Source: Thermoplasmata archaeon (GTDB lineage: Archaea; Thermoplasmatota; E2; DHVEG-1). Taken from it: a DNA stretch of 64,000 nt. Within the stretch, counting starts at the first letter, position 1; the number at the start of each line of letters is the position of its first letter. This document shows positions 9,144 through 55,384 of this stretch, piece after piece. The position numbers were made by a program, and so were the translations under genes. The notes beneath the pieces are model-generated. The model did no database searches and was not told the origin of the DNA. It saw nothing but the letters and a program-made list of their open reading frames with translations. Where the stretch lies: contig JAHWGJ010000002.1 of assembly GCA_020054475.1 (NCBI GenBank), positions 38,100 through 102,099 on the forward strand, in the 5' to 3' direction.

Positions 9144-9569
9144 ATGACAGATATACTTCTTTCAAATGAGTCCATGCAGTATATAAATATGGCAGCAAAT
9201 ATTTTAAAAATTGATATACTTGATTGCATAGTATCAGAGGGTCGATTGATTTTTATTGTTAAAAAAGGTCATCTTGGAATAGCAATAGGTATCAAAGGAA
9301 AAAACCTTGAAAAATTACGAAATCTTTTTAAAAAAAATATTAAATTCGTTGAATTAGATAATAATAAAGAAAAATTTATTCAAAATCTTTGCAGACCTTA
9401 TAAAGTAAATAATATTTCAATTGAAGGATCAGGAGATTCAACAGTAGTGAAAATCCAGGCAAACACAAGCGATAAATCAAAACTTATCGGCAAAGGCGGA
9501 AGTAATATTGACATTATTAGAAAACTTGCACACAGACATCATTCAATAAAGGATGTTCAAATAAAATAA
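9144..9569 (+). CDS. nusA: archaeal NusA-like transcription termination factor (two KH domains)
   Basis: 141 aa with GxxG KH signatures (IGIKGKN, IGKGGSN) in the canonical position after rpl30e. Confidence 0.85.
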   Translation: MTDILLSNESMQYINMAANILKIDILDCIVSEGRLIFIVKKGHLGIAIGIKGKNLEKLRNLFKKNIKFVELDNNKEKFIQNLCRPYKVNNISIEGSGDSTVVKIQANTSDKSKLIGKGGSNIDIIRKLAHRHHSIKDVQIK

Positions 9570-9679
9570 TAAACAAAATTTACTAAGTTTTTTTTACATA
9601 ATATTTTATAAACATATTCCATATTCACGAATGGGGATTACTTCTGAAGAAGGATATCAATAATACTGAAAAATTCAAT

Positions 9680-12600
9680 TTGAGAAAACTAATTACAAAT
9701 GAGGAAACCACTCTTATTGTTGATGATAAAAAATACTCGATTAAAATCAAAGATGACCCTGAATGTTCAAAAGCATGTCCTGCAGGTGTTAATGTAAAGG
9801 CTTATATTAATCTTATAGCAAATAAAAGATATGAAGATGCAGTTGATGTAATTCGGGAGGATAATCCATTTCCAGCTATTTGTGGTAGAGTCTGCAATAG
9901 ACCTTGTGAAGATAATTGTGAACAAGGATTAAAAGGAGATTCCGTTCAGATTCGTGCTCTTAAAAGATTTACATGTGATTATGAACTTGCAAGAAGACCT
10001 ATTAATACGGAACCATGTAAAATAATTCATAAAGAAAAAATAGCAATAATTGGTGCAGGACCTGCTGGTCTTTCAGCAGCTGTAGATCTTATAAAAATGG
10101 GATATTTTGTAAATGTTTTTGAAGCTGAGAAAGAACCTGGTGGCATGCTCCGATATGCCATACCCTCTTATCGACTACCTAAGAGAATACTGAAGAGAGA
10201 GATAGATTGGATTAAAGATTTAGGAGTAAACATTAATACAGAAAAAAAAATAAATAATCCAGATCATCTTTTAAAAAAAGGATATTCAGCTGTTTTAATA
10301 GCTCAAGGGTCATCTTATTCCATACCAATGGGAATAGAAGGAGAAAAAACTGAGGGAGTTATTAATCCATTATTATTTTTAAAAAAAATTAATACAAAAA
10401 AATCAATAAAAGTTGATGGTGATATAGTTGTCATTGGTGGCGGTTCAACTGCTTTTGATGTTGCAAGATCTGCTGTAAGATTAGGTGCAAAAAAAGTTAC
10501 AATTGCATATAGACGTGGAATGGAAGAGATACCCGCTGAATCTGAGGAAATTGAAGATGCGGAAAAAGAGGGCATTGAAATAAAAACCTTATTGATTCCA
10601 AAAAGAATTATTGAAAAAAATGGAAAGGTAAATAGTATAGAATTTCTCAAAGCCAAACTAGGAAAACCTGATGAATCTGGAAGAAGAAGACCTATTCCTA
10701 TTATAAATAGTGAATTAGTGATAAAAGCGGATATAATATTTCCTGCAGTTGGATCTAAACCAAATATCGAATCATTCAAACATTTAAACATTACTAATAA
10801 GAAAAATAGAATTGAGGTAAAAGAAGGAAACCTAACTAGATTTAGAGGAATATTTGCAGCAGGTGATGTTGAAAAAGGTCCTTCTTATGTAGTAGAGGCG
10901 ATTAAAGAGGGGCATATAGCTGCAAAAGGGATAGATTCATATTTAAAAGGGAAGAATAAATCTACTGAAAATAGTATTTTCAATTCCATTCCAATAGTAG
11001 AGGAATCCAAAAAATATAATAAATCAATTCATCATCCAAAAAGAGTAAAATTCAATACGGAAAATAAAACGTTTGATGAGGTTGAAAAATCCTTTATTGA
11101 TTTTGAAGCTGTTGAGGAAGCATCAAGATGTTTTAATTGTGGATCTTGTAATCTATGCACTATCTGTCTTCCAAATTGTGATAATAAACAGCTTATAGCA
11201 AAAATTGATGATAAAAGATTTTTATTAAAAGTTCCATATAAATTATCTTATGTAATATATAATAAAGATGATTCAATATATAATATAAATTTATCTAAAG
11301 ACCTATTAAAGCCTATAAACCTTAGGACTCTGATTGCATCTGTAAATTCCGATTTATGTATAAGTTGTGGGAGATGTGAAGAAGTTTGTGCATATCGGGC
11401 TATTAGAAATATTTTTATAAAAAATAAGCCAATGACAGCTGAGGTGGATCATGATTCCTGCGCCTCTTGCAGTGCATGTGCTTCTGCTTGCCCTACTGGA
11501 GCTATTTCTCAGGGTTATATGTCTGATGATGAAATATTATTAAGATTATATGAGACAAAAACTTTATATCCTGGTGTAAAAGCTCTCATGAGTTATTGGA
11601 GTACTCCCACAAATTCCTTTGAAGATTATAATGGTGTTGTTGAAATAATGTCTGCAAGAAAACCCTCCCCCTCATTTTTAATTAGAGCTCTTGCAAGATC
11701 TGGTAGAGGTCTACTTGTTATTGGACCTGATAAAAAATCTGGATTACATTATCTGTCCTGGGAGGAGCATCCATCAGATATTGTTGAAAAAACCAGAAGA
11801 TTGTTAAAAATTTTTGGTATCTCTCAAGATAGAATTCAATATAAAGCTGCACCTGATAATACGGATCCACATCAATTGTTAAAAGATTTTTCAAAAGATC
11901 TTGGTGATAAAAAACTCAATACTTTTAAGGTTATTCATCCAAAAATAAAAATGAATCCTATTAATGAGTCAATAATGATTCTTAGATTTTTATCTGCAAA
12001 TCCTGATATTGAACCTTATGATGATATAATAAATCTATCTCCAGTCAAAAAAAAAGGTATTGCATTTTTTGAAGGATGCTTGCCTTTAATTAATAATATT
12101 GGATTAATCCATAAATTATTTGACATAAGTTCAACTAGAATTTCCATTCATAAACTCTTAAAAAAAGCTGGTATTGTTTATGGATTAATACCTGGTTTTT
12201 TATGTCCATCAAATTCATTATTAGAATCAGACATTGATAAAACGGGAGATATTGTTAAAAAAATAGCTGAGAAAAACCTTCAATTATATAAAATAATAGA
12301 TCCAGATAAATTAATTTTAGGTACACCTGAATCCTTTAACACATTTTCAAAATTAAAAGAGTATAAAAATATTGAGTCTCTCCCAAATATTTTATATAAT
12401 AAATTTAAGAATTCTAAAGGATTTTATCCTATAAAAAAGTCTGTAGCAATTCATTCATCATGTCGTTTGAAAAAAGATCCATTTATTGATTCTACTAAAA
12501 AACTTATTAAGTTAATTCCAGGTATTTCTATTGTTGAATTAGAAGATAAATGTTGTAATAATGGATTTACTAATTTAAATGTAGAATCAAAAGAATCAGT

Positions 12601-12781
12601 TTTAAAAATTTTATGTGAAGCTAATGAAAAGGATGTAGATTCGATAATTTGTACGAGTCCTAATTGTGAATCTCATTTTCTATTGTGTCAGAGGAAAGGT
12701 TCGTGGCTTACAACTGATATTGAAATAACAGATGTTTATTCGATTCTAATGAAATCCTTAAATGATGGTGATAAAATATGA
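9680..12781 (+). CDS. multidomain flavin/Fe-S oxidoreductase: GltD/NfnB-like NAD(P)H-FAD module + 2x[4Fe-4S] ferredoxin + MvhD-like domain + HdrB-like CCG domains
   Basis: 1033 aa.
- N-terminus: CPAGVNV..CGRVCNRPCE, then GAGPAGLSAA, VVIGGGSTAFDVA and AAGDV, as in GltD small-subunit relatives.
- Ferredoxin motifs: CFNCGSCNLCTICLPNC, CISCGRCEEVC and CASCSACASACP.
- MvhD-like stretch: VEIMSARKPSPSFLIRALARSGRGLLVIGP.
- C-terminus: C-x29-CC-x31-C-x4-C (SSC..KCCNNG..CTSPNC), a CCG-like pattern.
Apparent TTG start. The stop overlaps the next ATG (ATGA). Confidence 0.75.
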   Translation: MRKLITNEETTLIVDDKKYSIKIKDDPECSKACPAGVNVKAYINLIANKRYEDAVDVIREDNPFPAICGRVCNRPCEDNCEQGLKGDSVQIRALKRFTCDYELARRPINTEPCKIIHKEKIAIIGAGPAGLSAAVDLIKMGYFVNVFEAEKEPGGMLRYAIPSYRLPKRILKREIDWIKDLGVNINTEKKINNPDHLLKKGYSAVLIAQGSSYSIPMGIEGEKTEGVINPLLFLKKINTKKSIKVDGDIVVIGGGSTAFDVARSAVRLGAKKVTIAYRRGMEEIPAESEEIEDAEKEGIEIKTLLIPKRIIEKNGKVNSIEFLKAKLGKPDESGRRRPIPIINSELVIKADIIFPAVGSKPNIESFKHLNITNKKNRIEVKEGNLTRFRGIFAAGDVEKGPSYVVEAIKEGHIAAKGIDSYLKGKNKSTENSIFNSIPIVEESKKYNKSIHHPKRVKFNTENKTFDEVEKSFIDFEAVEEASRCFNCGSCNLCTICLPNCDNKQLIAKIDDKRFLLKVPYKLSYVIYNKDDSIYNINLSKDLLKPINLRTLIASVNSDLCISCGRCEEVCAYRAIRNIFIKNKPMTAEVDHDSCASCSACASACPTGAISQGYMSDDEILLRLYETKTLYPGVKALMSYWSTPTNSFEDYNGVVEIMSARKPSPSFLIRALARSGRGLLVIGPDKKSGLHYLSWEEHPSDIVEKTRRLLKIFGISQDRIQYKAAPDNTDPHQLLKDFSKDLGDKKLNTFKVIHPKIKMNPINESIMILRFLSANPDIEPYDDIINLSPVKKKGIAFFEGCLPLINNIGLIHKLFDISSTRISIHKLLKKAGIVYGLIPGFLCPSNSLLESDIDKTGDIVKKIAEKNLQLYKIIDPDKLILGTPESFNTFSKLKEYKNIESLPNILYNKFKNSKGFYPIKKSVAIHSSCRLKKDPFIDSTKKLIKLIPGISIVELEDKCCNNGFTNLNVESKESVLKILCEANEKDVDSIICTSPNCESHFLLCQRKGSWLTTDIEITDVYSILMKSLNDGDKI

Positions 12782-14865
12782 TGGATAATAGGATTAATAA
12801 TCATCCTGTATTATCAGTTGATGAAAAATCTGATTTTATTACTTTTAATTTTAATGGTAAAAAAATTACTGCTAAATCAGGGGAGATGATTTCTTCAGCT
12901 CTTTTCGCTAATGGAATACATGTCTTTGGTCATCATCATAAAGATAATTCTCCTCAGGGAATATATTGTGCCAATGGGCAATGTTCCCAATGTTTAGTAC
13001 TTGCAAATGGCATTCCAGTTAAATCATGTATTGTACCTGTTGAAAAAAATATGGATGTAAGATCTTTAGAGGGGTTACCTGAACTTCTTAAAGATGATGA
13101 AATAGTAAAAAAAGGAATGAAGACACCTGTCATCAATACAAGGGTGTTAATAATTGGTGGTGGTCCAGCTGGATTATCCGCAGCTATAGAACTTGGTCTT
13201 ATGGATGTCAAATGCATTATATGCGATGATAAACAGGATCTAGGGGGTAAACTCAGTCTTCAAACCCATAACTTTTTTGGATCAATTAGAGATTGCTTTG
13301 CAGGATCTAGAGGGATGGATATAGGATATAATCTCACATCTAAAGTAAAAAAGGATGAAAACTTGGAGATTTGGACGGACTCACCGGTCGTAGGTGTTTT
13401 TGTTGATGGATTAATTGGAGTAGTAAAAAATGGTAGATATGTTCTTGTTAAACCTGATATAATTCTAATAACAACAGGTGCTAGGGAGAAAACCTTAGCT
13501 TTCCCCGGTTGTGATCTACCTGGTGTTTATGGAGCTGGTGCTTTTCAGACACTGGTTAATAGAGATTTAATCAAGCCTACTGAAAAATTATTTATTATTG
13601 GAGGTGGAAATGTTGGTATTATTGCTGCATATCATGCTCTTCAAGCAGGTATTGATGTAATTGGATTAGTTGAAGCACTTCCTAATTGTGGTGGTTACAA
13701 GGTTCATCTGGATAAAATTAAGCGTATGGGAATTCCAATTTATACTTCTCATACTGTTTTGAAGGCTATTGGAAAAAATCATCTAGAAAAGGTTGTAATC
13801 ACTAGGATTGATGATAAGTTTAAACCAATAAAGGGTACTGAAAAAAATTTTGAAGCAGATACCTTGCTTATCGCTGTTGGTCTTTCGCCTGTTGATGAAT
13901 TGAAGAAACAAGCTGAAGTATTTGGTTTAAAAACGTATGCTGCCGGTGATGCTGATATAATAGCTGAAGCATCTGCTGCAATGTTTTCTGGAAAAATAAT
14001 TGCAAGAAAAATACTTATCGATATGGGATTTAATGTTGAAATTCCACCAGAATGGAATCAAATGGTTGAAATACTGCGCAGTCGCCCAGGTCCAACCAAA
14101 AAAACCAATCATAGTATACCTAAAGATAAAGAGATTTACACTGTTATGCATTGTTATCAAGAGATCCCATGTAATCCCTGCACTGAAACTTGTGTATTAC
14201 AGAGTATTAAAATTAAAGATAAATCTATAATGGGCACTCCTAATTTTGAAGGTAAATGTCTTGGTTGTGGAAGATGTGTATCTCTTTGCCCAGGTCTTGC
14301 AATAACACTAGTTGATAAAAAATATGATTATTCAAAGAAAACTGCTAGAATTATGATTCCTTGGGAAATGCCTAAGAACTCTATTAAGGTAAATCAAATA
14401 TTATCAACAACAGATATTGAAGGAAATATCATCGGAGAGGGAAAAGTAATTGCAATCAAAACATCTGAATGGCAGAATAAGAGACAGCTTGTATCAATTG
14501 AAATTCCATACAAAGATACAGATAAGGTTGTTAATATTAGAATTAAAAAAGCGGTTATTGAAAATATTCCTAAATCTTGTGAAATATTAGATGATAAAAA
14601 TATAATAATATGTCGCTGTGAAAGAGTTACAAAAAAAGAGATTGTTGATTATATAAAAAATACAGGTACAAAGGATTTTAATGCTGTTAAAGCTGCATTG
14701 CGTGTTGGGATGGGTGCATGTGGAGGAAAGACTTGTACTGAACTTGTAATGCGAATTTTTAGAGAACTAGGAGTAGATCTAAAAGACGTTGAAGTAAATG
14801 TTGAAAGACCTTTTACTCAGGAGATACCGATTAAATCTTTTTTAAATGATGGTGATAACAAGTGA
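12778..14865 (+). CDS. [2Fe-2S]/FAD/NAD(P)/ferredoxin/BFD-domain oxidoreductase, alpha-type subunit of the opine oxidase / HcnAB / archaeal L-proline dehydrogenase family
   Basis: 695 aa. N-terminal CANGQCSQC..SC 2Fe-2S fold, two Rossmann motifs (IIGGGPAGLSAA, IIGGGNVGIIAA), CLGCGRCVSLCP ferredoxin, and a C-terminal BFD-like CRCERVTK..CGGKTC. Confidence 0.8.
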   Translation: MMDNRINNHPVLSVDEKSDFITFNFNGKKITAKSGEMISSALFANGIHVFGHHHKDNSPQGIYCANGQCSQCLVLANGIPVKSCIVPVEKNMDVRSLEGLPELLKDDEIVKKGMKTPVINTRVLIIGGGPAGLSAAIELGLMDVKCIICDDKQDLGGKLSLQTHNFFGSIRDCFAGSRGMDIGYNLTSKVKKDENLEIWTDSPVVGVFVDGLIGVVKNGRYVLVKPDIILITTGAREKTLAFPGCDLPGVYGAGAFQTLVNRDLIKPTEKLFIIGGGNVGIIAAYHALQAGIDVIGLVEALPNCGGYKVHLDKIKRMGIPIYTSHTVLKAIGKNHLEKVVITRIDDKFKPIKGTEKNFEADTLLIAVGLSPVDELKKQAEVFGLKTYAAGDADIIAEASAAMFSGKIIARKILIDMGFNVEIPPEWNQMVEILRSRPGPTKKTNHSIPKDKEIYTVMHCYQEIPCNPCTETCVLQSIKIKDKSIMGTPNFEGKCLGCGRCVSLCPGLAITLVDKKYDYSKKTARIMIPWEMPKNSIKVNQILSTTDIEGNIIGEGKVIAIKTSEWQNKRQLVSIEIPYKDTDKVVNIRIKKAVIENIPKSCEILDDKNIIICRCERVTKKEIVDYIKNTGTKDFNAVKAALRVGMGACGGKTCTELVMRIFRELGVDLKDVEVNVERPFTQEIPIKSFLNDGDNK

Positions 14866-16040
14866 CTAAAAAATATGACGTAATAATCATTGGAGCGGGT
14901 TCTGTTGGATTACCAACTGCATATTTTTTATCTAAAGCTGGTGAGAGAGTACTCATCTTAGATGAGTTATCTTCATCTGGACAGGGACAAAATAAATCAG
15001 CAATTGGTGGAGTTCGTGCAACACATTCTGATCCAGCTAAAATTCAGATTTGTCTTCAGAGTCTTGATATATTTTCAAAATGGATGGATGAGACAGGGGC
15101 AAATATTGGATGGAAGAAAGGAGGATATTGTTTCCCTGTTTTTAGAAGAAAAGAAGAGGATATTCTTAAATCAATTCTCCCTATTCAAAAAAAATATGGC
15201 CTTAATATTGACTGGGTTGATTCTGAAAAAATCATGGAGATTATACCTGGTATAAATCAAAATAATCTAATTGGTGGTACATATTCACCTGGTGATGGTC
15301 AAGTAAGTCCATTGTTATCCTCTGAATCTTTTACTAATGAATCTGTAAAACTAGGTGCTGAATTTAGATATAAAGAAAATGTAACAAATCTGATTACTGA
15401 GAAAAATAATAAAAATGTAACTGTAAAAGGTGTTAAAACAACTAAAGATGAGTATAAAGCAGATGCTGTTTTAAACGCAGCGGGATCCCATGCAACATGC
15501 ATATGTGAAATGGCTGGTCTTGATATTCCTGTTAATCCAGATAGCCATGAAGCAGGTATAACAGCACCGGTTAAAACCTTTCTAGATCCACTTGTCGTTG
15601 ATATTAGACCTGGTGAAGAGGGAAAAACAGCGAATTTCTATTTTGGTCAGAATCTTGATAATCAAATTATTTTTTGCTATACCCCATTAAAAATATTCCC
15701 AGGGGAGAACCGGGATTCAACTTCAGAGTTTATGCCAGTTATGGCTAGAAGAATGGTTGATCTTATACCTAGATTAAAGAATCTGACGATAAGACGTCTA
15801 TGGCGTGGTCTTTATCCAATGACTCCCGATGGATTAGCAGTTGTTGGAAAATCCAAAAACGTTGAAGGATTCTATCTCAGTATTGGTATGTGTGGTCAGG
15901 GATTTATGATGGGGCCGGGTGTAGGTTTAAATTTAGCTAATCTTATTATAAAGGGAAATCCAATAATTGATAAAGATGTTTTTAATTTACTAAGCCCAGA
16001 TAGAGATTTTTATAGTGGTAAAAAAGAGGCTTTAAAATAA
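14862..16040 (+). CDS. FAD-dependent amine/amino-acid oxidoreductase (DAO family: sarcosine oxidase beta / HcnC / proline dehydrogenase beta-like)
   Basis: 392 aa with N-terminal YDVIIIGAGSVGLPTA dinucleotide fold and C-terminal CGQGFMMGPGVG. GTG start overlaps the upstream stop (GTGA). Confidence 0.85.
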   Translation: MTKKYDVIIIGAGSVGLPTAYFLSKAGERVLILDELSSSGQGQNKSAIGGVRATHSDPAKIQICLQSLDIFSKWMDETGANIGWKKGGYCFPVFRRKEEDILKSILPIQKKYGLNIDWVDSEKIMEIIPGINQNNLIGGTYSPGDGQVSPLLSSESFTNESVKLGAEFRYKENVTNLITEKNNKNVTVKGVKTTKDEYKADAVLNAAGSHATCICEMAGLDIPVNPDSHEAGITAPVKTFLDPLVVDIRPGEEGKTANFYFGQNLDNQIIFCYTPLKIFPGENRDSTSEFMPVMARRMVDLIPRLKNLTIRRLWRGLYPMTPDGLAVVGKSKNVEGFYLSIGMCGQGFMMGPGVGLNLANLIIKGNPIIDKDVFNLLSPDRDFYSGKKEALK

Positions 16041-21742: not shown

Positions 21743-21784
21743 CTAAACCATAAGTATATATTATCACCCTTTTATTAGATATTG

Positions 21785-22990
21785 ATGAAAACAATATATA
21801 ACTACGAGCATAACCTGGAAAAAGCATTAAAAAACCTTGATTCAAAGAGATTATCTAAAAAAAACAAGAATCAAATAAAAGAGTTCATCTATTTTTTATC
21901 AGTTAACAAAGTAGGTAAATGCAGACAGTTGAAATATGTCTTCGCTTTGCAGAACATAGCAGAATGGCTTAAAATTGATTTTGAGAAAGCAACAAAGAAA
22001 GATATAGAATATATAATAAATAAAATGGAGAATATTAAGCAGTCAAATGGACAGCCTTTTAGTGAATGGTCTAAACATGACCACCGGGTAATAATCAAGA
22101 AATTCTATACATGGCTTAGAAACAAGGAAAATGATGATATAGACGAATGGGAGACACCTAAAGAAGTCAAATGGGTTAAAGCAAAAAAACCACGTAACTG
22201 TAACAAGCTCCCTTCAGATTTGTTAACCCCTCAGGATATAACTTTTCTTTCTGATAACTGTAAAAACCTTAGAGAAAAAGCTTTGATTCTTACATTATAC
22301 GAGAGTGGAGCGAGAATCGGAGAATTATTATCTTTAAAGATTAAAGATGTTGAGTTTGATGATTACGGAGCTATGCTTAATCTCTTTGGAAAGACAGGAT
22401 ACCGTAAGATCCGCATAGTCGGAAGTTCACCAGCTCTTAGTCAATGGCTGCAGAATGAACATCCTAAACGTGATGATAAAAACGCTTATCTTTTTTGTAA
22501 TATCAACCAGGGTAATGAGGGAACTTTACTTTCTTATGCCTCTGCTAAAAAGATTTTAAACAACCTTAAGAAACGCACTGATTTTAAGAAACCGCTTAAC
22601 CCTCATCATTTCCGGCACAGCAGAGCCTCAGAGCTTGCAGAGCATCTAACCGATAGCCAGAGATGTCATTACTTGGGTTGGCAACAGGGTTCTCAAATGG
22701 CTCGTATATATACACATATAGAAGATACTAATAGAATAATACTTGAATTGAATGGCCTTGTTAAAAAAGATAAAGATAAAACAGGTAAATTCTCAGAAGT
22801 GATTTGCCCACGTTGCAATATTAAAAATCCTTATGGTAGTAAGTTTTGTGGTCAATGTAGTATGGGATTAGATATTCATAGTATCGATGAATTTGAAAAA
22901 ACACGCAATCAAGCGTTGAAAACAATTGACAACAGCCAAAATATTGAAGCTATTGTTGAAATGGTAATGAAGAAATTAGAAAATAGATAA
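21785..22990 (+). CDS. tyrosine recombinase / phage-type integrase with C-terminal zinc ribbon
   Basis: About 401 aa. Catalytic blocks ESGARIGELLSLKIKD (Arg), HHFRHSRAS (His-x-x-Arg) and GSQMARIYTHI (Tyr). C-terminal CPRCN..CGQCS zinc ribbon. Confidence 0.9.
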   Translation: MKTIYNYEHNLEKALKNLDSKRLSKKNKNQIKEFIYFLSVNKVGKCRQLKYVFALQNIAEWLKIDFEKATKKDIEYIINKMENIKQSNGQPFSEWSKHDHRVIIKKFYTWLRNKENDDIDEWETPKEVKWVKAKKPRNCNKLPSDLLTPQDITFLSDNCKNLREKALILTLYESGARIGELLSLKIKDVEFDDYGAMLNLFGKTGYRKIRIVGSSPALSQWLQNEHPKRDDKNAYLFCNINQGNEGTLLSYASAKKILNNLKKRTDFKKPLNPHHFRHSRASELAEHLTDSQRCHYLGWQQGSQMARIYTHIEDTNRIILELNGLVKKDKDKTGKFSEVICPRCNIKNPYGSKFCGQCSMGLDIHSIDEFEKTRNQALKTIDNSQNIEAIVEMVMKKLENR

Positions 22991-24032: not shown

Positions 24033-25643
24033 TCATAGATATTTTGAGAGAATTGGTTCAAGAATTGGAAAACGAAGTATTAATTGATTAATTAGTATCT
24101 GTAAAGTATTATATGAGTGAGGCATACTGATTACAAGTGGATCTGACCATTCACTCTCACCCCCATGAATGTCCTTAGTTTTTGCTTTTATTTCATAATT
24201 CCCTCTACGAGTCCAAGTGTGAGATTCACTGCACTCTTCTCCAGAATCATAAGGTCCAATCCATTCCCTTTCAGTTCCATCATCCCAATCAAACTTATAG
24301 TAAATCTGATCTCCATCAGAATCATTTCCTATGCAAGTGTAACCATACTCTTCGCCTATCTTACCTTGTGAAGAACCAGATGGAGCTGATGGTTTATCTG
24401 GTCTTGAATTTTCAAAAGCAGCAAATTTTACTAACCATACATCTCTATTACCTGAACCATATGATTCGGTAAATCCAGCAATGATATATCCTCCATCAGA
24501 GGTTTGATGTACTTCAAATCCTTCATCTATATCAGTTCCTCCGAACATTACGCTCCATTCCGTGTTACCATAAATATCAGTCTTAATTAAAACAGCATCA
24601 TTTGAAATAAACCCAGTAACGATGAATCCTCCATCTTGAGTCTGTTCCACAGAGGTTCCAGAGTCAAAAGAATCTTGTTCTCCAAAATACTTACTCCATT
24701 CTTCATTTCCATTACTATCAATCTTTATTAAAGAAAGATCCTCCTCCTCATCAGAAGAATAAATTTGTGACTGCCCCGTGAGAATATAACCACCATCAAT
24801 CGTCTGCTGAATCCAAAGACAGCTATCTAGATATGATCCACCAATAAACGGTTTATTCCATTGTGTCTCACCATTACTATCAGTTTTAATAACTAAAACA
24901 TTACTAGATGTCCAACTATTATCTAAATAATTCCGCCCCGTTACAATATATCCTCCATCATCAGTCTGTTGTACTGACATTAAATATTCACCACCAATTG
25001 AATCACCAAAAGTTTTATTCCAATCCTCATTACCATTACTATCTGTTTTAATCAACCAGCCGTCACTACCACCTGAACCATAAGAACGAGTTGATCCCGC
25101 AATAATATAACCACTATCAGATGTCTGATGAACTGAAACACCTTGATCATCATCTGACCCTCCAAAAGTTTTATTCCAAACCTCATTACCATTACTATTC
25201 GTTTTACTCAGCCATATATCCATATTCCCAGCGCCAAAAGACGTTGTCAATCCAGTAAGTATATATCCTTCATCTAATGTCAGACTCACATCACCAAACC
25301 TGTCAATCCCAGATCCTCCAAAAGTTATATTCCAAACATCATTACCATTACTATCTGTTTTAATCAACCAGCCATCACCTCCAGTATCCCACCAAATAGC
25401 ATCTCTCCCTCCTGCAATGATAAATCCATTATCAAATGTTGGTTTAACACTTAGTCCAACATCAAACATCGATCCACCAAATGTTTTGTTCCACTCCTCT
25501 TCTGGACCATTAACCGAATTAATATGATACCCAAAAATATTTTTAACAGGTAAGGAATCTTTTTCTATTATTGATAAAGATGCAGTATCAACAATACAAA
25601 AACAAAGTATAAATACACTAAATATTGGTATTATTTTTTTCAT
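24033..25643 (-). CDS. secreted beta-propeller-repeat protein with the shared C-terminal PKD-like/SMP tail module
   Basis: 536 aa. Signal peptide, then about 7 repeats of the type GG..D.G.SV.QT.DGGYI..G.T.SYG.G..D.WL.KTDSNGN..WNKTFGG. Ends with ..YYKFDWDDG..GPYDSGEE..GNYEIKAKTKD..SEWSDPLVISMPHS..LILRFPILEPILSKYL. Its ATG overlaps the upstream stop (ATGA). Confidence 0.85.
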   Translation of the reverse strand: MKKIIPIFSVFILCFCIVDTASLSIIEKDSLPVKNIFGYHINSVNGPEEEWNKTFGGSMFDVGLSVKPTFDNGFIIAGGRDAIWWDTGGDGWLIKTDSNGNDVWNITFGGSGIDRFGDVSLTLDEGYILTGLTTSFGAGNMDIWLSKTNSNGNEVWNKTFGGSDDDQGVSVHQTSDSGYIIAGSTRSYGSGGSDGWLIKTDSNGNEDWNKTFGDSIGGEYLMSVQQTDDGGYIVTGRNYLDNSWTSSNVLVIKTDSNGETQWNKPFIGGSYLDSCLWIQQTIDGGYILTGQSQIYSSDEEEDLSLIKIDSNGNEEWSKYFGEQDSFDSGTSVEQTQDGGFIVTGFISNDAVLIKTDIYGNTEWSVMFGGTDIDEGFEVHQTSDGGYIIAGFTESYGSGNRDVWLVKFAAFENSRPDKPSAPSGSSQGKIGEEYGYTCIGNDSDGDQIYYKFDWDDGTEREWIGPYDSGEECSESHTWTRRGNYEIKAKTKDIHGGESEWSDPLVISMPHSYNTLQILINQLILRFPILEPILSKYL

Positions 25644-27832
25644 ATTTTAAACTCCAAAATTATCTTGAAAAAATTAAAAAATTGAGATTTCCCCCAAAAC
25701 CTATACAGTAATTTTAATAAACCTATATTTTCAAATTCTATACTTTTTGGCATACTAACTGTTAGAGGATCTGACCAGTCGCTTTGAACTCCGTTTTCAT
25801 CTTTTGCTTTAGCTTTAACTTGGTATCGTCCTTTATTGGCCCATGAATGATTCGCCTCTACCTGCTCTCCTGAATTATAAGGACCAATCCAGCCAGATAA
25901 ATTATCATCGCCCCAATTAAAAAGATAATATAGATCGTCTCCATCGGGATCAGTCGTTGATGATGAATATGAGTATAATATATCTGGTTCTACTGAAGAT
26001 TGACCTGATGGTTTTGCTGGTTTTTCTGGAACTTGAGAATGTTCTCCAATTACAAGTGTTGGATCTCCAAAGGATTGCCATGATTCAAGCGTAGCATAAT
26101 CACGAACCTCCATACTAGGATAAATATAATCCTCTATGGCCATAACCCACATTTCTCCAAATGTTATTGAATCTCCTTTATTTACACACTCTTTGTATGC
26201 TTCAAATATATTCATTGTAATTTCTTCAATAAATCCACCTGTTATACCTCTTCCACCCCCATTAGCATAACCAAAGGTAGTAACACCAAAAGAACCTATA
26301 CCACCACCATTAGGATTGGAAAGAAACGACCAACCAAAACAATTATCGATTACATTGTATTTACAAGTAGAACAAGCACCAAGAACAATAATGGGAAGTT
26401 TTTCATTATTTGTTAATTTTGCAGAATGTATATTAGAATATCCCCCAGGTATTGGAAGCCATTTGGATTCATCACCATGAGGATGTGTCGCCCATAAATT
26501 AGGATCACCATGCCCAGAAAAGTCAACAAATCCACATCCTTCATTGATGATATTAGATATTTCGTTGTTAAAAAAGACATTATCATCTAACATTCCCTTA
26601 GAAGCCCATATCCGCTTTGGGATAAAACCATCAAGGATACCAATTACAATATCATTTACATATTCTCCTTCATCAACCATCCAAGTATCATCAGTAAAGG
26701 TATCCCCTCCAATTACAACCAAATCAGTAAACCAATCTTTTGTAGATGCTCTATCTGTTTCATAATTAGTAATTTTCTCCACACATGTTTTTACTTCGGT
26801 TTCATTAATACAAGCAATTCGACCTATAGAAATATCAGGGTAGAGATCAACATCATCTGTTAAATGAGAATCGCCCCAATCATACTCAGCAAATACATTG
26901 TTTTGGTTTGTATCCCAACTTGCAAAATAACCATCAGCATCATATATATCAGCATAATAGAGATCGCTAATGAAGGATTCATCAACATCAAAATATTCTA
27001 AATATACATGTGTTTCTCTCGCTGGAAATGAATGATACCCACCGACTAATAATACTGAAGAAATACCCCATTGCTCTATAGCATTTTTAATAAAATATTT
27101 AACTTTCTCTGGATTATCTCGACCTTCAACGAGAAAGTACTGACTATCATATATTTCATTAAGAGCAACAAGTTTGGTTTCAATCCCTCTGTTATTCTTA
27201 TGATTGACCAAATCCTCTAATTCATCCGCATATTCAGAAGGGGAGAGAATAATATAATCATACACATCGGAGGATGATAAAGGTTGTTCAGATTCTTTGT
27301 ATTCTATTTCAATATCGATTTGTTCAACCCAATCTATAATGTTTTCGGAAGGATGATATTGAACTGGAAAAACCTGTACTTTAACAAACACGTTTATATC
27401 ATCTTTATTCAAACCAGTTCCAATATTATACTTATACCATTCAGAAGGGGCTATTGGAGATGAATCTGTTTTTATATTTTTTTGAATATTAGTATGCTCT
27501 AAAAGAATGGGCTCTGGTGCCACCATTATTTCTTTTGTTAATGTTTCTCTATGAATATTTCCAGGTTGGCATTTTATACTTTTAATTTGTGTTCCAAAAG
27601 GAAAGGTAAAGGTTTCAATTCTTGTTGGAACAATATAATGATTATATTTCATCAGTTTTGAATTTGCACCTTCAAGGTCTAATGAGATATATTCTTCATT
27701 CTCCTGTATCGAAAGTTGTGAAAAGGATAAAGTAATTTTTTCTTGTTTGAGTTCATCATCTGTTAAAGCAATAGCTCCAAATCCACTAAAAATAATAAAT
27801 CCAATTACTAATACTATGAATATTTTCTTCAT
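25640..27832 (-). CDS. secreted peptidase C25 (gingipain-like) with the shared PKD-like/SMP tail module
   Basis: C25 propeptide-like N-terminus, LLVGG, DFSGHGDPNLW (His) and IIVLGACSTCKY (Cys). C-terminus ..YYLFNWGDD..GPYNSGEQ..GRYQVKAKAKD..SDWSDPLTVSMPKS..LLYRFWGK. Start set at the internal ATG 27832 (MKKIFIVLV signal), which forms an ATGA overlap with the upstream stop. Confidence 0.85.
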   Translation of the reverse strand: MKKIFIVLVIGFIIFSGFGAIALTDDELKQEKITLSFSQLSIQENEEYISLDLEGANSKLMKYNHYIVPTRIETFTFPFGTQIKSIKCQPGNIHRETLTKEIMVAPEPILLEHTNIQKNIKTDSSPIAPSEWYKYNIGTGLNKDDINVFVKVQVFPVQYHPSENIIDWVEQIDIEIEYKESEQPLSSSDVYDYIILSPSEYADELEDLVNHKNNRGIETKLVALNEIYDSQYFLVEGRDNPEKVKYFIKNAIEQWGISSVLLVGGYHSFPARETHVYLEYFDVDESFISDLYYADIYDADGYFASWDTNQNNVFAEYDWGDSHLTDDVDLYPDISIGRIACINETEVKTCVEKITNYETDRASTKDWFTDLVVIGGDTFTDDTWMVDEGEYVNDIVIGILDGFIPKRIWASKGMLDDNVFFNNEISNIINEGCGFVDFSGHGDPNLWATHPHGDESKWLPIPGGYSNIHSAKLTNNEKLPIIVLGACSTCKYNVIDNCFGWSFLSNPNGGGIGSFGVTTFGYANGGGRGITGGFIEEITMNIFEAYKECVNKGDSITFGEMWVMAIEDYIYPSMEVRDYATLESWQSFGDPTLVIGEHSQVPEKPAKPSGQSSVEPDILYSYSSSTTDPDGDDLYYLFNWGDDNLSGWIGPYNSGEQVEANHSWANKGRYQVKAKAKDENGVQSDWSDPLTVSMPKSIEFENIGLLKLLYRFWGKSQFFNFFKIILEFKI

Positions 27833-29124
27833 ATTTTTATACCCCCAATAGCTTTTTTGCATAAGATATTGAATAATATTAAAGCTGCTCTATTACTAAA
27901 AAGTGTCCCAGTATTTGGTAAATTATTTACAAAAAATATTACACCCGTATCATTATAAGAGCAAGGGTAATACATGAAAGTCCATACACCAAAATTTCCA
28001 CCATTATGACCTGCAAGTTTTTCCTTACAAAATGAATAATCCATTTCTACCCATGCTAACCCGTAATCAGTTGTTTGAGAATCATCAAAATCAGGTGGTT
28101 GTATTCTATGCATCTCTATAATAGTATCTTTTTCAAGAATACTAATACCTTTGTAAACGCCATCGTTCATATGGGCGATTAAAAAATGTGAAAGGTCTAT
28201 AACAGTTGTATATAAACCACCAACAGGATAATGAAGCATTCGATGATATTTACTATCCGCAAATCCTTGTAGTGTATCAATTGTTAAATATTCCCCGTTT
28301 GAATAATAATATGGAATTGCAACATCATCAATATTTAAAGATGAAAGATTAAAACTAGTTTCATACATCATTAAAGGTAAAAAGATATGTTCATCGCAAT
28401 AATCAATGAAAGATTCTCCAGAAATTAATTCAACGAGATACGCAACTATATCAAAGTTTATATTCGCATAAATATGATACTCACCAGGTGGATCCTCAGG
28501 GTTCCAATATCCATAAAATGGAGGATCATACCATTTCCCATCTGGAGTTAAATAATCGATTATCCATGGGAAAGGATAGAAGGAAAATGGTGGATCACCC
28601 GAGAAATTAAACCAATACCATGGATGATAATCATCTATCAAAATTTCTGGAGCTAAACCAGAAGAATGCGAAAGCAACATCCGAAAAGTAATAGGAACAT
28701 CAGGGAAATTAGGATTTCTCAGAGTAAAGGATAGGTAATCATTGACATCATCATCAAGATCGAAAAATCCTTGTTCATAGAGTTGCATCAATGCTGTACC
28801 AGTAATTGTTTTAGATATTGAACCGATGTTGTAAATAGTGTATCTTGTGGAAGGTTTTTCATTTTCAAGATCATAAGAACCATAACCCTTTGACCATACT
28901 ACCTCATCATTATCAATAATACATGCTGAAAGGGATGGAAAATGAGCGAGTTTCATAAGGATAGTAACAACCTTATCAAAAAATATGTCATTTGAACCAG
29001 TTCTTTGTTCTACAAAATCATTTTCATAATAAGCGTATACCATTGCAGGTATTACAGAGAATACCATCAAAACTGCAATAAGCGAAACAACAGCTTTTTT
29101 ATATATTTCCATTTTTATTTTCAT
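27829..29124 (-). CDS. secreted beta-lactamase-fold serine hydrolase (class C / D-aminopeptidase-like)
   Basis: S-x-x-K motif (GSISKTITG), Y-x-N (YANIN) and an HNGG box. Signal/TM segment VVSLIAVLMVFSVIPAMVYA. Start set at ATG 29124, preceded by a GGAGGC RBS. Confidence 0.85.
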   Translation of the reverse strand: MKIKMEIYKKAVVSLIAVLMVFSVIPAMVYAYYENDFVEQRTGSNDIFFDKVVTILMKLAHFPSLSACIIDNDEVVWSKGYGSYDLENEKPSTRYTIYNIGSISKTITGTALMQLYEQGFFDLDDDVNDYLSFTLRNPNFPDVPITFRMLLSHSSGLAPEILIDDYHPWYWFNFSGDPPFSFYPFPWIIDYLTPDGKWYDPPFYGYWNPEDPPGEYHIYANINFDIVAYLVELISGESFIDYCDEHIFLPLMMYETSFNLSSLNIDDVAIPYYYSNGEYLTIDTLQGFADSKYHRMLHYPVGGLYTTVIDLSHFLIAHMNDGVYKGISILEKDTIIEMHRIQPPDFDDSQTTDYGLAWVEMDYSFCKEKLAGHNGGNFGVWTFMYYPCSYNDTGVIFFVNNLPNTGTLFSNRAALILFNILCKKAIGGIKI

Positions 29125-29399
29125 ATTTTTGCCTCCGCCATATAATCTTATATCAAAGAAATTGGATATATTATTATCAAGAAAAATCAACGTAATATAA
29201 GATAAGAATCATACTTGTAAAAATTAATAAAATTATTAACAAAATAAACTTTATTTTATTATTTTTTATTTTTTCCAATATTTTCTGATAATCATACATC
29301 TTTTTTTCTCCATTTTTTTATTATTTCTATTTATTCAAATCCAACAAATTTGATTTGACTCTACCAATTTCAATAGATTACAAATGATTTGTTTTAAAT

Positions 29400-45795: not shown

Positions 45796-46518
45796 TTAAA
45801 TTTCATCTACACATACAGATATTGCAATCTTCAAGGCATCAATCATAGTTTCCAAGTCCATACCATTCTCTGGATCTTGAGAGGAAAGAAGAGGGACATG
45901 GATAAATCCTGCCTCTATCGAAAGATCATTTCTATCAATAAAATTTAGAACTCCGTAAAATACTTCATTGCAAATAAAGCTGCCAGCATTATAATTCTGT
46001 TCTGTAGATATATTCACTCTATTAATTTCACGAACAATATTTTTTGTAGGAAGAGGAGATAATAACAAAAATGGACCACGAGGATCTATTCTACGAAATA
46101 AAAATACATTCCCTTCATTATCAGGTTTAATACATGATTTTAAATTTATTCCTATTTTTTCAACATGTATCGAGTTTATCATTCCAGCACCCATGCTTAT
46201 TACAATGTCTGGATTGTAACCCATGATTCCCTGAGTTACAAAATCTACAGCTTCACCCCAAATTACAGGCGCCGTAATACCAAAGACTATAGCTCCATTT
46301 ATTGTTTCACCATTAAGATTCTCTGCAATCAATTGAGAAGGATTAGGAGTATACTTAGCCCAAGATTCAAAACCAGTGATCAAAACAGTTTTTTCATAGC
46401 AACAATCAACAATATTTACTAAATTAATATCATCTTCAAATGATCCAACAGGAATTACATATGACCCTATCAAAAGAATTGAAAAACATAAGACTATTAC
46501 AATTCTATTAAATCTCAT
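45796..46518 (-). CDS. pcp: pyroglutamyl (pyrrolidone-carboxylate) peptidase I, peptidase C15, with N-terminal signal-like segment
   Basis: VLITGFE.W....NPS, catalytic-region blocks HVEKIGIN (Glu), AGSFICNEVFY (Cys) and GFIHVP (His). N-terminus MRFNRIVIVLCFSILLIGSYVIPVGS is hydrophobic. Confidence 0.88.
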   Translation of the reverse strand: MRFNRIVIVLCFSILLIGSYVIPVGSFEDDINLVNIVDCCYEKTVLITGFESWAKYTPNPSQLIAENLNGETINGAIVFGITAPVIWGEAVDFVTQGIMGYNPDIVISMGAGMINSIHVEKIGINLKSCIKPDNEGNVFLFRRIDPRGPFLLLSPLPTKNIVREINRVNISTEQNYNAGSFICNEVFYGVLNFIDRNDLSIEAGFIHVPLLSSQDPENGMDLETMIDALKIAISVCVDEI

Positions 46519-53470: not shown

Positions 53471-55384
53471 ATGAAGAAAAATCTTTATAAATATAATAAA
53501 ATATTTTTTAGCATTTTTACAATAATATTATTACTGTTATTACCGTTAGTTAGTTCAAGTTATATTGAAAAATCTGAAAATAATAATTTCCAAATTAATA
53601 ATTATAAGTTTTCAAAAACATTTTCCACACCTATAATATATACTGAAGAAGATTTTATAAAAATTGATTTTGAAGAAGCAAATTCTTATATATCTTTAGA
53701 AAGTCATCCTAAACTACCTGTTTATTCAAAAGTATTCGAATTACCTTATGGTTCAGAGATAATAGATGTCAAAAATACAATTTCTGAGATAAATAATAAG
53801 ATGTTAACACAAAAAGTTGAACCTGTACCTTTTCATCAAAGTATAAATGATATAACTCCAGTAGAAATGGAATTTAATAATTACATTTATAATTCTAATA
53901 ATCTATATCCTAATGAATGGATTAGTTATCAGGTTGGCGTTGGTATAAATAATGATAACAAAATTGTTAAATTTATATCAGTTAAAATAAATCCAATTAG
54001 ATATAATCCTATTGAAAATAATATTAAATTCATAAATAGTATAAGTGTAGAAATAATTTATTCTGAACCCGAATTAAAAATATTAAAAAATAATGGCGAT
54101 TTTGATTTAGTTATAATTTCTCCATCAGAATTTGTTAATAATCTTGCATCTTTTGTTGATCATAAGAATAATAATGATATGCTTACAACAATTAAAGCAA
54201 TTGAAGATATTTATTTAGATTTTAATGGTAGAGATTATCAGGAGAAAATTAAATACTTTGTTAAATATGCTATTGAAGAATGGAAGGTTAAATATATTCT
54301 TCTAATAGGGGATATAAATAAGCTTCCGATTAGAACAACTGATGCCTATCCTTGGTCCGGTTATCATGGAAATGGAATATTATCCGATCTATATTATGCG
54401 GATATATATGATAAAGATTTTAATTTTTGTTCTTGGGATTCTAACAATAACAACGTTTTTGGTGAAATTGAAGAATTAGATCTCCGATCTGATTTTTATA
54501 TTAACATAGATGATGTAGATCTATATCCAGACGTACATATTGGGAGAATTCCTTGTTCAACATCTGAAGAACTTGCAATAGTTCTTGATAAGATCATAAA
54601 TTACGAGGAATTTACTTTTGATCAGATATGGTTCAATAAAATAATTTTAGCTGGTGGGGATACTTTTCCATTATCAAAAGGCTCTTTACCATTTGTTTAT
54701 GAAGGTGAAATAACAAATACCAAAGTTGGTGAACAATTACCTAGTTTTGAAAAGATAAAATTATGGTCTTCAAAGCATAATTTGAATGCACATAAGTTTA
54801 ACAAAGCCATAAGAGAAGGTGCTGGTTTTTTGAGTTATGCCGGACATGGTTTTGAGCATGGATGGGGTACATATAGACCTAATTCAATTAGAAATAAAAT
54901 GGGTATTCTTCAGCCATTGTATTATACTCCATTTATTAAATATATAAGAAATGATTATAGATTACCCATTATTTTCTTTGATGCTTGTTTAACTGCAAAG
55001 CTTGATTTTAATATTACGGATCTTGAAGATTATTATGGTTTACCTGTTTCAATTTTTAATTTTTTACCACGTAATAGATATTCTATTTCTGATTTTTTCC
55101 CAAGTTTAACTTGGAGTTTTCTTAAGGATGAAAATGGAGGTAGTATTGCCTCTATTGGTGCTACTAGACCTGCATATACTTATGTTGATAAATATGGTGT
55201 TTATGCTGGTGCAGGATACCTAGATGTACATTTCTTTAAAGCATATTATGAAGGAACAACAATTGGAAAAATGCTAACTCAATCCCAGTTGGATTATATC
55301 AATTATGTTGGAAAAGATTTTTTTACTATTGAGGAGTTTATGTTAATTGGAGATCCAAGTTTAAAAGTTGGCGGATATCCATAA
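53471..55384 (+). CDS. secreted peptidase C25 (gingipain-like), paralogue without the PKD/SMP tail
   Basis: 637 aa. Signal peptide, C25 propeptide-like N-terminus, YAGHGFEHGWG (His) and IIFFDACLTAK (Cys). Shares DLYYADIYD and YPD.HIGRIPC blocks with 25640-27832. Confidence 0.8.
   Translation: MKKNLYKYNKIFFSIFTIILLLLLPLVSSSYIEKSENNNFQINNYKFSKTFSTPIIYTEEDFIKIDFEEANSYISLESHPKLPVYSKVFELPYGSEIIDVKNTISEINNKMLTQKVEPVPFHQSINDITPVEMEFNNYIYNSNNLYPNEWISYQVGVGINNDNKIVKFISVKINPIRYNPIENNIKFINSISVEIIYSEPELKILKNNGDFDLVIISPSEFVNNLASFVDHKNNNDMLTTIKAIEDIYLDFNGRDYQEKIKYFVKYAIEEWKVKYILLIGDINKLPIRTTDAYPWSGYHGNGILSDLYYADIYDKDFNFCSWDSNNNNVFGEIEELDLRSDFYINIDDVDLYPDVHIGRIPCSTSEELAIVLDKIINYEEFTFDQIWFNKIILAGGDTFPLSKGSLPFVYEGEITNTKVGEQLPSFEKIKLWSSKHNLNAHKFNKAIREGAGFLSYAGHGFEHGWGTYRPNSIRNKMGILQPLYYTPFIKYIRNDYRLPIIFFDACLTAKLDFNITDLEDYYGLPVSIFNFLPRNRYSISDFFPSLTWSFLKDENGGSIASIGATRPAYTYVDKYGVYAGAGYLDVHFFKAYYEGTTIGKMLTQSQLDYINYVGKDFFTIEEFMLIGDPSLKVGGYP

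Follow-up and report, generated by a model that had tools for sequence, protein, structure and literature searches.

A gene trio of a Thermoplasmatota archaeon joins an NfnL-like flavo-iron-sulfur protein to a proline-dehydrogenase-type pair

The window analysed here is a stretch of 64,000 nucleotides (G+C about 30%) from contig JAHWGJ010000002.1 of a Thermoplasmata archaeon, and our subject is a trio of overlapping genes within it, which we call g1, g2 and g3. We propose that g1 (a fused flavo-iron-sulfur protein) and g2 and g3 (an amine dehydrogenase pair of the proline dehydrogenase type) would form one soluble complex that couples the oxidation of L-proline to the reduction of NADP+, with ferredoxin as the probable co-donor (confurcation). 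We hold this proposal tentatively, at a little less than an even chance. Behind it stand the domain anatomy of the three proteins, the conservation of the trio, its context in relatives, an intact NADP(H)-FAD module and a chain of invariant cluster sites. The first-pass annotation, made from the DNA alone, had placed three translationally coupled genes at 9680-16040 on the forward strand, in exact agreement with the list of open reading frames (ORFs), and the stop/start overlaps that it gave, ATGA for g1/g2 and GTGA for g2/g3, were both read directly in the DNA. The genes are as follows.

9680-12781, + strand: g1, 1033 amino acids, TTG start; fused flavo-iron-sulfur protein
12778-14865, + strand: g2, 695 amino acids, ATG start; alpha-type subunit
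14862-16040, + strand: g3, 392 amino acids, GTG start; DAO-fold FAD dehydrogenase, beta-type catalytic subunit

Conservation of the trio as a unit

Homologues of g1 fall into about 75 close clusters (at least 43% identity), most of them full length, and a second tier at 33-37% identity; the fullest name that they carry in the databases is 'FAD-dependent oxidoreductase [Thermoplasmatota archaeon]'. A neighbourhood survey bore out the idea of a conserved three-gene unit, since g2 and g3 lie directly 3' of a full-length g1 homologue, on the same strand, in 15 of 15 distinct contigs with enough downstream sequence (18 loci, some of them duplicates), with g1 identity down to 35% and unrelated flanks. 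They also follow a 909-amino-acid variant of g1 (L022). Identity to the window proteins is 35-60% for g1, 57-74% for g2 and 62-77% for g3. In addition, a metagenome scan with a g2 alignment returned at least 566 matching stretches, from which 80 loci were retained (L025-L104); L001-L024 came via g1 or its relatives, and the contexts of g2 are sampled without bias in L025-L104 alone. The resulting 94 non-redundant loci were surveyed by targeted tblastn with module queries and by Pfam. The g3 gene stands behind g2 in 71 of the 71 loci that have at least 1.2 kb downstream, and g2-g3 is, to judge from sequence, a widespread and ancient two-gene core. Furthermore, in L056 (5461-9375) a single ORF of 1304 amino acids joins a Fer2_4/multi-Fer4/FlpD protein in frame to the g2 homologue. 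This fusion of a partner to g2, together with the gene overlaps and the two counts, is the reason why we treat the trio as a single unit.

Some g1 homologues of 866-892 amino acids lack Fer4_20 (P0034, P0035, P0055-P0060 and similar). Reading them as N-terminally truncated variants was rejected, as in the one case followed back to its contig (P0059, on L014) the whole protein can be read in a single frame; they are probably start-codon miscalls, perhaps with non-ATG starts such as TTG behind them.

g2 and g3 resemble a heteromeric proline dehydrogenase

The description of g3 as a DAO-family FAD dehydrogenase held in Pfam (DAO, 181 bits). Among solved structures, g3 comes closest to the beta subunit of the L-proline dehydrogenase PDH1 of Pyrococcus horikoshii (PH1363/PH1364, 1Y56), g3 residues 3-368 aligning with residues 4-358 of 1y56_B at 3e-51; the next-best structures are dimethylglycine dehydrogenases (about 1e-27) and glycine and sarcosine oxidases (1e-19 to 1e-21). 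For g2, Pfam returned Fer2_4, Pyr_redox_2, a dicluster ferredoxin and Fer2_BFD, as expected of the HcnA+HcnB-like protein proposed in the first-pass annotation. Its residues 14-282 and 604-677 align with 1y56_A in the N-terminal, Rossmann and BFD-like parts, and the sarcosine oxidase alpha subunit was also matched. The protein carries an N-terminal [2Fe-2S] motif, C-x4-C-x2-C-x11-C (C64/69/72/84), a dicluster ferredoxin insert with eight Cys (C459-C504) and a BFD [2Fe-2S] motif, C-x-C...C-x4-C (C612/614/648/653), and 16 of these 16 Fe-S Cys are invariant among 14 sequences at 53-100% identity. It also has a FAD Rossmann domain and a second nucleotide site of the NAD/ADP type, GGGNVG...E, both motifs being conserved; the homologous site reportedly binds ATP in the Pyrococcus enzyme (Tsuge et al. 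2005).

With PDH1 the pair shares the alignment of g3 with the beta subunit from end to end and of g2 with the alpha subunit in three regions, and also the tight linkage and translational coupling of the two-gene core. However, PH1363 lacks the four N-terminal [2Fe-2S] Cys that g2 keeps, and the 8-Cys ferredoxin domain is an insertion in g2. The Thermococcales enzymes, moreover, are not described with a 1033-amino-acid NADP(H)-binding partner and are 'dye-linked', with no defined physiological acceptor. Judged by their domains and alignments, g2 and g3 belong to the heteromeric proline dehydrogenase/HcnABC-type superfamily, to which heterotetrameric sarcosine oxidase also belongs. A published account covers this superfamily, with HcnABC, OdhABC, LhpBEF and the archaeal L-ProDH, and its two [2Fe-2S] motifs (PMC4575208).

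The neighbourhoods of related cores also speak for the proline-type dehydrogenase pair suggested at the outset, in line with the match of g3 to 1y56_B. In 15 of the 94 non-redundant loci the g2-g3 core adjoins a gene for delta-1-pyrroline-5-carboxylate (P5C) dehydrogenase, the TIGR01236 equivalog (L-glutamate gamma-semialdehyde dehydrogenase), which scored 752-805 bits against a cut-off of 613.6. Many of these contigs carry no redox partner gene. The P5C dehydrogenase gene lies as follows.

L035, L037-L040, L042, L044-L046, L048, L050, L051, L075: divergent, mostly about 100-300 bp upstream of g2
L024, L052: co-directional, ahead of the g1-type gene

The g3 proteins of the 15 loci are about 58-66% identical to that of the window. 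This, and the distance between the L-proline enzyme (3e-51) and all other solved relatives (1e-27 or weaker), argue against a different g3 substrate in the same architecture, which would be another secondary amine or amino acid released when peptides or osmolytes are degraded (for instance sarcosine, D-proline, hydroxyproline, D-amino acids or opine-like compounds). We consider such a substrate unlikely, even though the HcnABC/OdhABC/LhpBEF/Sox/ProDH superfamily switches substrate readily, including by exchange of beta subunits (PMC4575208), g3 stays under every NCBIfam equivalog cut-off and no P5C dehydrogenase was seen in the window.

An NADP(H) module and a chain of cluster sites in g1

Five elements were distinguished in g1, in the following order.

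9755-10912, + strand: NADP(H)-binding FAD module of the NfnL/GltD type, with two [4Fe-4S] sites (residues 26-411; Pfam and PDB matches)
11129-11179, + strand: 6-Cys motif CxxCxxCxxCxxCxxxC (residues 484-500), following the GltD module and preceding the ferredoxin domain
11336-11509, + strand: 2x[4Fe-4S] ferredoxin domain (residues 553-610; Fer4, Fer4_21 and related Pfam families)
11567-11869, + strand: MvhD (FlpD) fold in which none of the four [2Fe-2S] ligand positions is Cys (residues about 630-730)
12035-12757, + strand: double CCG domain of the HdrB/LutA fold (residues about 786-1026)

A complete GltD/NfnB-type NAD(P)H:FAD module had been claimed for the front half, and Pfam (Fer4_20 at residues 26-104, 6e-23; Pyr_redox_2 at residues 120-411, 1e-31) and NfnL-type PDB matches support it. 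Residues 27-491 matched NfnA of the Bfu-type NfnABC (9bov_A, 3e-108; 9n5u_A, 2e-93), StnC (8oh5_C, 2e-92) and NfnL of NfnSL (4ylf_B, 4e-81; 5jca_L, 3e-76); other solved GltD-type relatives are GltD (6s6s_G) and dihydropyrimidine dehydrogenase (DPD, 1gt8_A). In an AlphaFold2 model of g1 made with 55 homologues (predicted local distance difference test, pLDDT, 89.7; predicted template modelling score, pTM, 0.83), the N-terminal module superimposes on NfnL with a root-mean-square deviation of 2.2-2.8 Å (Foldseek). Since the full-length model gave mostly GltD and DPD matches in Foldseek, the tail was modelled separately.

Cysteines were counted by column in an alignment of 65 full-length sequences including the window protein, 49 of them close (at least 43% identity) and 16 distant (33-37%). 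The cluster Cys of the GltD module are invariant, and so are those of both ferredoxin motifs (CxxCxxCxxxC), the two Fer4 motifs at residues 553-610 in Pfam agreeing with the two ferredoxin clusters expected there. The 6-Cys motif, C484-x2-C-x2-C-x2-C-x2-C-x3-C500, was absent from the first-pass annotation and is 100% Cys in 65 of 65 sequences; as far as about residue 491 the motif is shared with the NfnA/StnC-type region, and it presumably forms an extra Fe-S site. Additionally, positions 565-754 of NCBIfam HdrA2, its C-terminal ferredoxin and MvhD end, align with g1 residues 546-727.

Use of NADP(H) by g1 is suggested by the motifs GAGPAG and GGGSTA...YRR of the GltD/NfnL module, in which GxGxxG, GxGxxA and Y277-R278-R279 are invariant; GxGxxA plus YRR is the published motif rule for NADP(H) (PMC12054007). 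The predicted non-Cys cluster ligand of the module is Lys95, which does not vary among 55 sequences. Its counterpart is the Lys of 9n5u_A, 9bov_A and 8oh5_C, and the same position is Glu in 4ylf_B, 5vj7_A and 5jca_L (the last by motif). In the Lys type (NfnA/StnC) the FAD is a plain, non-bifurcating NADPH entry site, and the Glu type is that of the bifurcating NfnL, where Glu is the fourth ligand of the cluster beside the bifurcating FAD (PMC12018979).

This ligand would suit a linear NADPH-dependent reductase, in which electrons pass from NADPH to the g1 FAD and along the Fe-S chain to the flavins of g2-g3, and P5C or another imine, cyclic or acyclic, is reduced to the amine free of ferredoxin. 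The plan of glutamate synthase and DPD, represented here by 6s6s_G and 1gt8_A, is the canonical role of a GltD module, Lys95 corresponds to a non-bifurcating NfnA-type site, and the reaction would be so strongly exergonic that coupling is unnecessary. We nevertheless give the linear reductase only a small chance: the P5C dehydrogenase beside the core in 15 loci indicates proline breakdown and not formation, P5C reduction is normally the job of a small single-subunit reductase, and the partners of the core elsewhere are of the bifurcation type (NuoEF/Bfu-like, or HdrA plus hydrogenase). Proline oxidation coupled to NADP+ reduction is the reading that we prefer.

The tail of g1: an MvhD fold without ligands and a double CCG fold

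Residues 615-1033 of g1 (419 amino acids), searched as a profile against the PDB, matched the MvhD chains 7bkb_F (2.9e-10) and 5odc_D (2e-8), and Pfam placed FlpD (MvhD) at residues 652-725 with 23.6 bits against a cut-off of 22.3. This confirms the fold of the MvhD-like domain for which the loss of every Cys ligand had been reported, and the four ligand columns are indeed non-Cys (S638, S658, P683, L689). They hold Cys in 0 of the 49 close sequences and in 100%, 100%, 100% and 69% of the 16 distant ones; because they are never Cys in the close clade and mostly Cys at 33-37% identity, the loss is, on these counts, derived, and it is real and clade-wide. The fold itself appears to be under selection, since W640, H690 and R718 stay invariant. 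A genome scan with the tail alignment found the Cys-less type in only 11 GTDB species genomes, all of them metagenome-assembled genomes of Thermoplasmatota, and among 1.84 billion proteins no more than 29 representatives matched the tail with E <=1e-30.

For the remainder of the tail, Pfam detects the second CCG domain only (residues 922-1000, 28.2 bits), and the tail profile did not find HdrB among PDB sequences, where only MvhD was matched. The CCG kinship is drawn from Pfam, from hhalign, in which tail positions 172-412 align with a 98% probability to the two CCG domains of a protein of the Fer4_8+CCG type, and from fold comparison: the separate tail model (pLDDT 87) matched LutA (9a6l_A, 2e-8, TM-score 0.70 normalised to the target) and HdrB (8rwn_B, 3e-6; 5odc_B, 2e-4; overall 3e-6 to 3e-4) in Foldseek. 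Canonical HdrB has two CCG motifs, each Cx31-39CCx35-36CxxC, whose 10 Cys hold two non-cubane [4Fe-4S] clusters. About six of the ten are kept in the close clade and only four in the 33-37% tier. The close clade keeps C800 and C842 in the first domain and C928, C958 and C996 in the second, with C991 two residues off; Ser993 occupies the place of the first Cys of CxxC in the second domain, and C959, the second Cys of 'CC', is Cys in only 6% of the close clade. The first-pass description of two CCG domains, of which only the second has the Cys pattern, is true for this sequence as such; the second pattern is non-canonical (Ser993, the shifted C991), and the first domain retains C800 and C842. 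Beyond the cysteines, H925, S993, H999 and W1009 are conserved or near-invariant.

These counts bear on a further alternative, namely that the CCG tail is a working HdrB-like site and that the complex reduces a disulfide, or some other substrate of the HdrB/LutA type, at the expense of NADPH and/or proline. Two non-cubane clusters need ten Cys, whereas the tail has about six left and the distant tier four; the MvhD cluster that would feed them is lost, CCG is missing in L022, L058 and L060, which keep g2 and g3, and there are no thiol-cofactor genes nearby. We regard a working site of this kind as improbable, its favourable points being the confirmed double CCG fold and the conservation of six Cys in the close clade and of H925, S993, H999 and W1009 more widely, a pattern suggestive of a metal or substrate site that has been kept. 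As we read it, the MvhD/CCG tail is probably a scaffold on which the N-terminus of g2 docks, and it would hold no more than one remaining metal site.

The tail probably arose from a separate MvhD-bearing protein and an HdrB-like protein that were later fused, since L052 encodes GltD-Fd-MvhD (778 amino acids) and a separate 305-amino-acid CCG protein. Both parts are dispensable among relatives: L058 and L060 are without either, and L022 has no CCG match. An R-x-G-S/G-W motif containing the invariant W1009 lies at 12706-12720 (residues 1005-1009), at the tail end just before g2. The Fer2_4/Fer4/FlpD partners in L056 and L070, although different in other respects, carry the motif at their C-terminus too, and it may belong to the interface with g2.

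Partners of the g2-g3 core in other lineages

Across the surveyed loci the g2-g3 core was found with the following partners upstream of g2.

Window type, its second tier and L024: GltD-Fd-MvhD-CCG, fused
L052: GltD-Fd-MvhD and separate CCG protein; unfused, ancestor-like state
L022: GltD-Fd-MvhD, no CCG match
L058, L060, L068: GltD-Fd only
L056, L070, L104: NuoE-NuoF fusion and Fer2_4/Fer4/FlpD protein
L064, L066, L073: HdrA-like protein and/or [NiFe] hydrogenase
21 loci whose upstream sequence spans 3.3 kb or more: no partner

The L056 fusion is preceded by a NuoE-NuoF gene, the same genes are unfused in L070 and L104, and the cluster looks like a Bfu-like proline dehydrogenase operon. That the same core pairs elsewhere with NuoEF/Bfu-type or HdrA/hydrogenase modules, and that the best solved relatives of g1 are subunits of bifurcating Nfn enzymes, suggest that the trio too would be coupled to low-potential carriers. 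The first-pass annotation had described bifurcation machinery of the Hdr/Mvh/Nfn kind wired to a proline-type dehydrogenase; the NuoEF/Bfu and HdrA plus [NiFe] partners of the core speak for the general idea, but the trio is not a member of the Hdr/Mvh or NfnSL systems, and these labels denote the ancestry of its parts, not membership. Bifurcation in the trio itself is something that we infer. More broadly, proline/P5C could be the high-potential partner of an unrecognised bifurcating or confurcating class in which one core is served, in different lineages, by three low-potential modules: an NfnL/GltD-MvhD-HdrB-like one (the Thermoplasmatota version, seen in the window), a NuoEF/Bfu-like one, and an HdrA-like one plus [NiFe] hydrogenase. 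We put this wider class forward as a rather doubtful possibility.

Several other arrangements of the same modules were seen. In L066 (2615-12215) the core stands beside an HdrA-like protein and the small and large [NiFe] hydrogenase subunits, and likewise in L064 and L073; in L022/L049, with the 909-amino-acid g1 variant, a [NiFe] hydrogenase and a HycI protease lie about 2-3 kb downstream of the core. L021 (7001-12992) encodes a 770-amino-acid GltD-Fd-MvhD protein without the g2-g3 core, with a four-gene 2-oxoacid:ferredoxin oxidoreductase cluster on one side and a Fer4_8+CCG protein and a split HdrA-like pair on the other, and seems to represent a distinct Hdr-like system, linked to NAD(P)H, that makes use of these modules too. 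In the second tier, the trio of L005/L006 and L008 has as its neighbours a class I fumarase of two subunits and a FAD_binding_4/FAD-oxidase_C (GlcD-like) gene, with LarA in L005. A hydroxy-acid substrate suggested by these neighbours (L005, L008) was rejected, as there are two such contexts only.

Comparison with known systems

Like the NfnL subunit of NfnSL, g1 has two [4Fe-4S] sites, FAD and an NADPH site, but it carries Lys95, as NfnA/StnC do, instead of the Glu ligand of bifurcating NfnL, and no NfnS partner (FNR-like, with [2Fe-2S], FAD and an NADH site) was found in the trio or its flanks. The trio would also differ from NfnSL, NfnABC and StnABC in its high-potential arm, an amine dehydrogenase and not NAD(H). 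The NuoF-like FMN and NuoE-like [2Fe-2S] subunits of Bfu (BfuABC) are absent from the window and lie beside the core only in L056, L070 and L104. With HdrABC-MvhAGD and HdrA2, g1 shares the ferredoxin and MvhD order of the HdrA2 C-terminus and the MvhD and HdrB-type folds. However, it lacks the four-Cys [2Fe-2S] site of MvhD, and its CCG pair is 4-5 Cys short of the ten of HdrB. Neither the thioredoxin-reductase-like FAD domain of HdrA nor an HdrC-type Fer4_8 was found in g1, which HdrA2 matches over its C-terminal segment only. To our knowledge, methanogenic thiol cofactors are not expected in this lineage. The trio, as compared here, falls outside the NfnSL, HdrABC-Mvh and Bfu enzymes by their defining features, and the N-terminal part of g1 is a member of the NfnL-like module family.

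Two further systems offer partial parallels. In fold comparison the g1 tail came closest to LutA (9a6l_A) of the lactate-utilisation system LutABC, although the tail has no LutB/LutC partners and is fused behind an MvhD fold. The confurcating Ldh-EtfAB of Acetobacterium woodii oxidises lactate, a substrate too oxidising to reduce NAD(P)+ unaided, with reduced ferredoxin as co-donor (PMC9232219), which is the logic proposed here, but its proteins are unrelated, and the Etf flavins there contrast with the NfnL-type flavin and long Fe-S chain of the trio.

Proposed electron flow

The proline/P5C couple lies at about -120 mV, near the heterodisulfide couple, and NADP+/NADPH at -320 mV; the direct reaction costs about +38 kJ/mol. 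Because proline lies about 200 mV above NADP+/NADPH and its oxidation on NADP+ would be uphill alone, a low-potential co-donor would be a natural solution. We infer the substrate, the direction of electron flow, the role of ferredoxin and the cofactors of the CCG tail, and a scheme can be drawn as follows. The FAD of g3, in its DAO fold, would oxidise L-proline to P5C. Electrons would then be relayed by g2, with its FAD and probably an interface FMN (flavin mononucleotide) as in the Pyrococcus enzyme, via the two [2Fe-2S] sites and the ferredoxin insert. In g1 they would pass from the ferredoxin domain to the 6-Cys site, the two GltD-type [4Fe-4S] clusters and the FAD, which would exchange hydride with NADP(H). 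Under confurcation, reduced ferredoxin would supply the low-potential electron and proline the high-potential one, a part played by lactate in Ldh-EtfAB and by NADH in Nfn, and P5C dehydrogenase would pull the reaction toward glutamate. Run in reverse, the complex would be a bifurcating NADPH:ferredoxin/P5C reductase.

Several observations weigh against this scheme. The Lys95 of g1 is the ligand found in NfnA/StnC, where bifurcation takes place at a site other than this FAD, and GltD-type modules also serve linear enzymes such as glutamate synthase and DPD. Neither a ferredoxin gene nor a ferredoxin-binding site was identified for the trio, and P5C dehydrogenase is missing from the examined loci of the close Cys-less clade as it is from the window; the assignment of proline as the substrate leans on relatives with 53-69% identity. 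Finally, the g2-g3 core needs no redox partner in the 21 loci that have none, and g1 changes much faster (35-60%) than g2 and g3 (57-77%).

Genomic setting of the trio

Upstream of g1 lie archaeal genes for rpoB, rpoA', rpoA'', L30e and NusA, and nusA ends at 9569, which leaves an AT-rich spacer of 110 bp before g1. Read directly within it is the following element.

9605-9612, + strand: archaeal TATA-like box, TTTATAAA

As the spacer carries TTTATAAA, the trio may have its own predicted promoter. Membership of the trio in the RNA polymerase operon was rejected, because the spacer with the TATA-like box lies in between and the linkage is absent in L003. The earlier statement that the trio replaces rps12-rps7-fusA after nusA is correct in that the trio sits after NusA, where rps12 is usual, but this holds in only part of the lineage (L002 has the same placement and L003 does not).

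On the 3' side, a GT2 glycosyltransferase and a 1309-amino-acid surface protein are encoded on the opposite strand, and a tyrosine (phage-type) integrase gene lies at 21782-22990 (+), about 5.7 kb past the trio and just beyond the surface-protein gene. Elsewhere the window encodes many PKD/beta-helix surface proteins, as well as peptidases and a hydrolase.

25640-27862, - strand, and 53471-55384, + strand: two gingipain-like C25 peptidases
45796-46518, - strand: pyroglutamyl peptidase
27829-29190, - strand: beta-lactamase-fold hydrolase

A peptide-degrading lifestyle would fit these peptidases and surface proteins.

Implications

The first-pass annotation did not recognise the trio as a described complex, and we likewise found no matching description in the full-text literature, including papers on HdrA diversity, the Bfu survey and Thermoplasmatota genomics, a coverage that leaves out most subscription journals. 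We take the trio to be known redox modules put together in a new way, and the physiological reaction that it would carry out is plausibly new as well. To oxidise proline without oxygen is thermodynamically difficult, and strict anaerobes are mostly known to reduce proline. The proline dehydrogenases known to us pass their electrons to quinone or oxygen, or are 'dye-linked' without a known acceptor.

If the proposal is right, the archaeal proline dehydrogenase family would gain a physiological acceptor, and an amino acid would join the short list of bifurcation/confurcation substrates. Peptide fermenters would be able to oxidise proline to glutamate anaerobically on NADP+ at the price of reduced ferredoxin or, in the reverse direction, would gain reduced ferredoxin from P5C reduction. 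For the evolution of redox modules, the trio offers an MvhD fold that outlives its cluster and an HdrB-like protein that was fused and partly stripped of its Cys, and the proposed class would be a case of a single catalytic core swapped among three bifurcation platforms. Such a reaction would also help to explain the redox balance of sediment Thermoplasmatota and of other peptide degraders.

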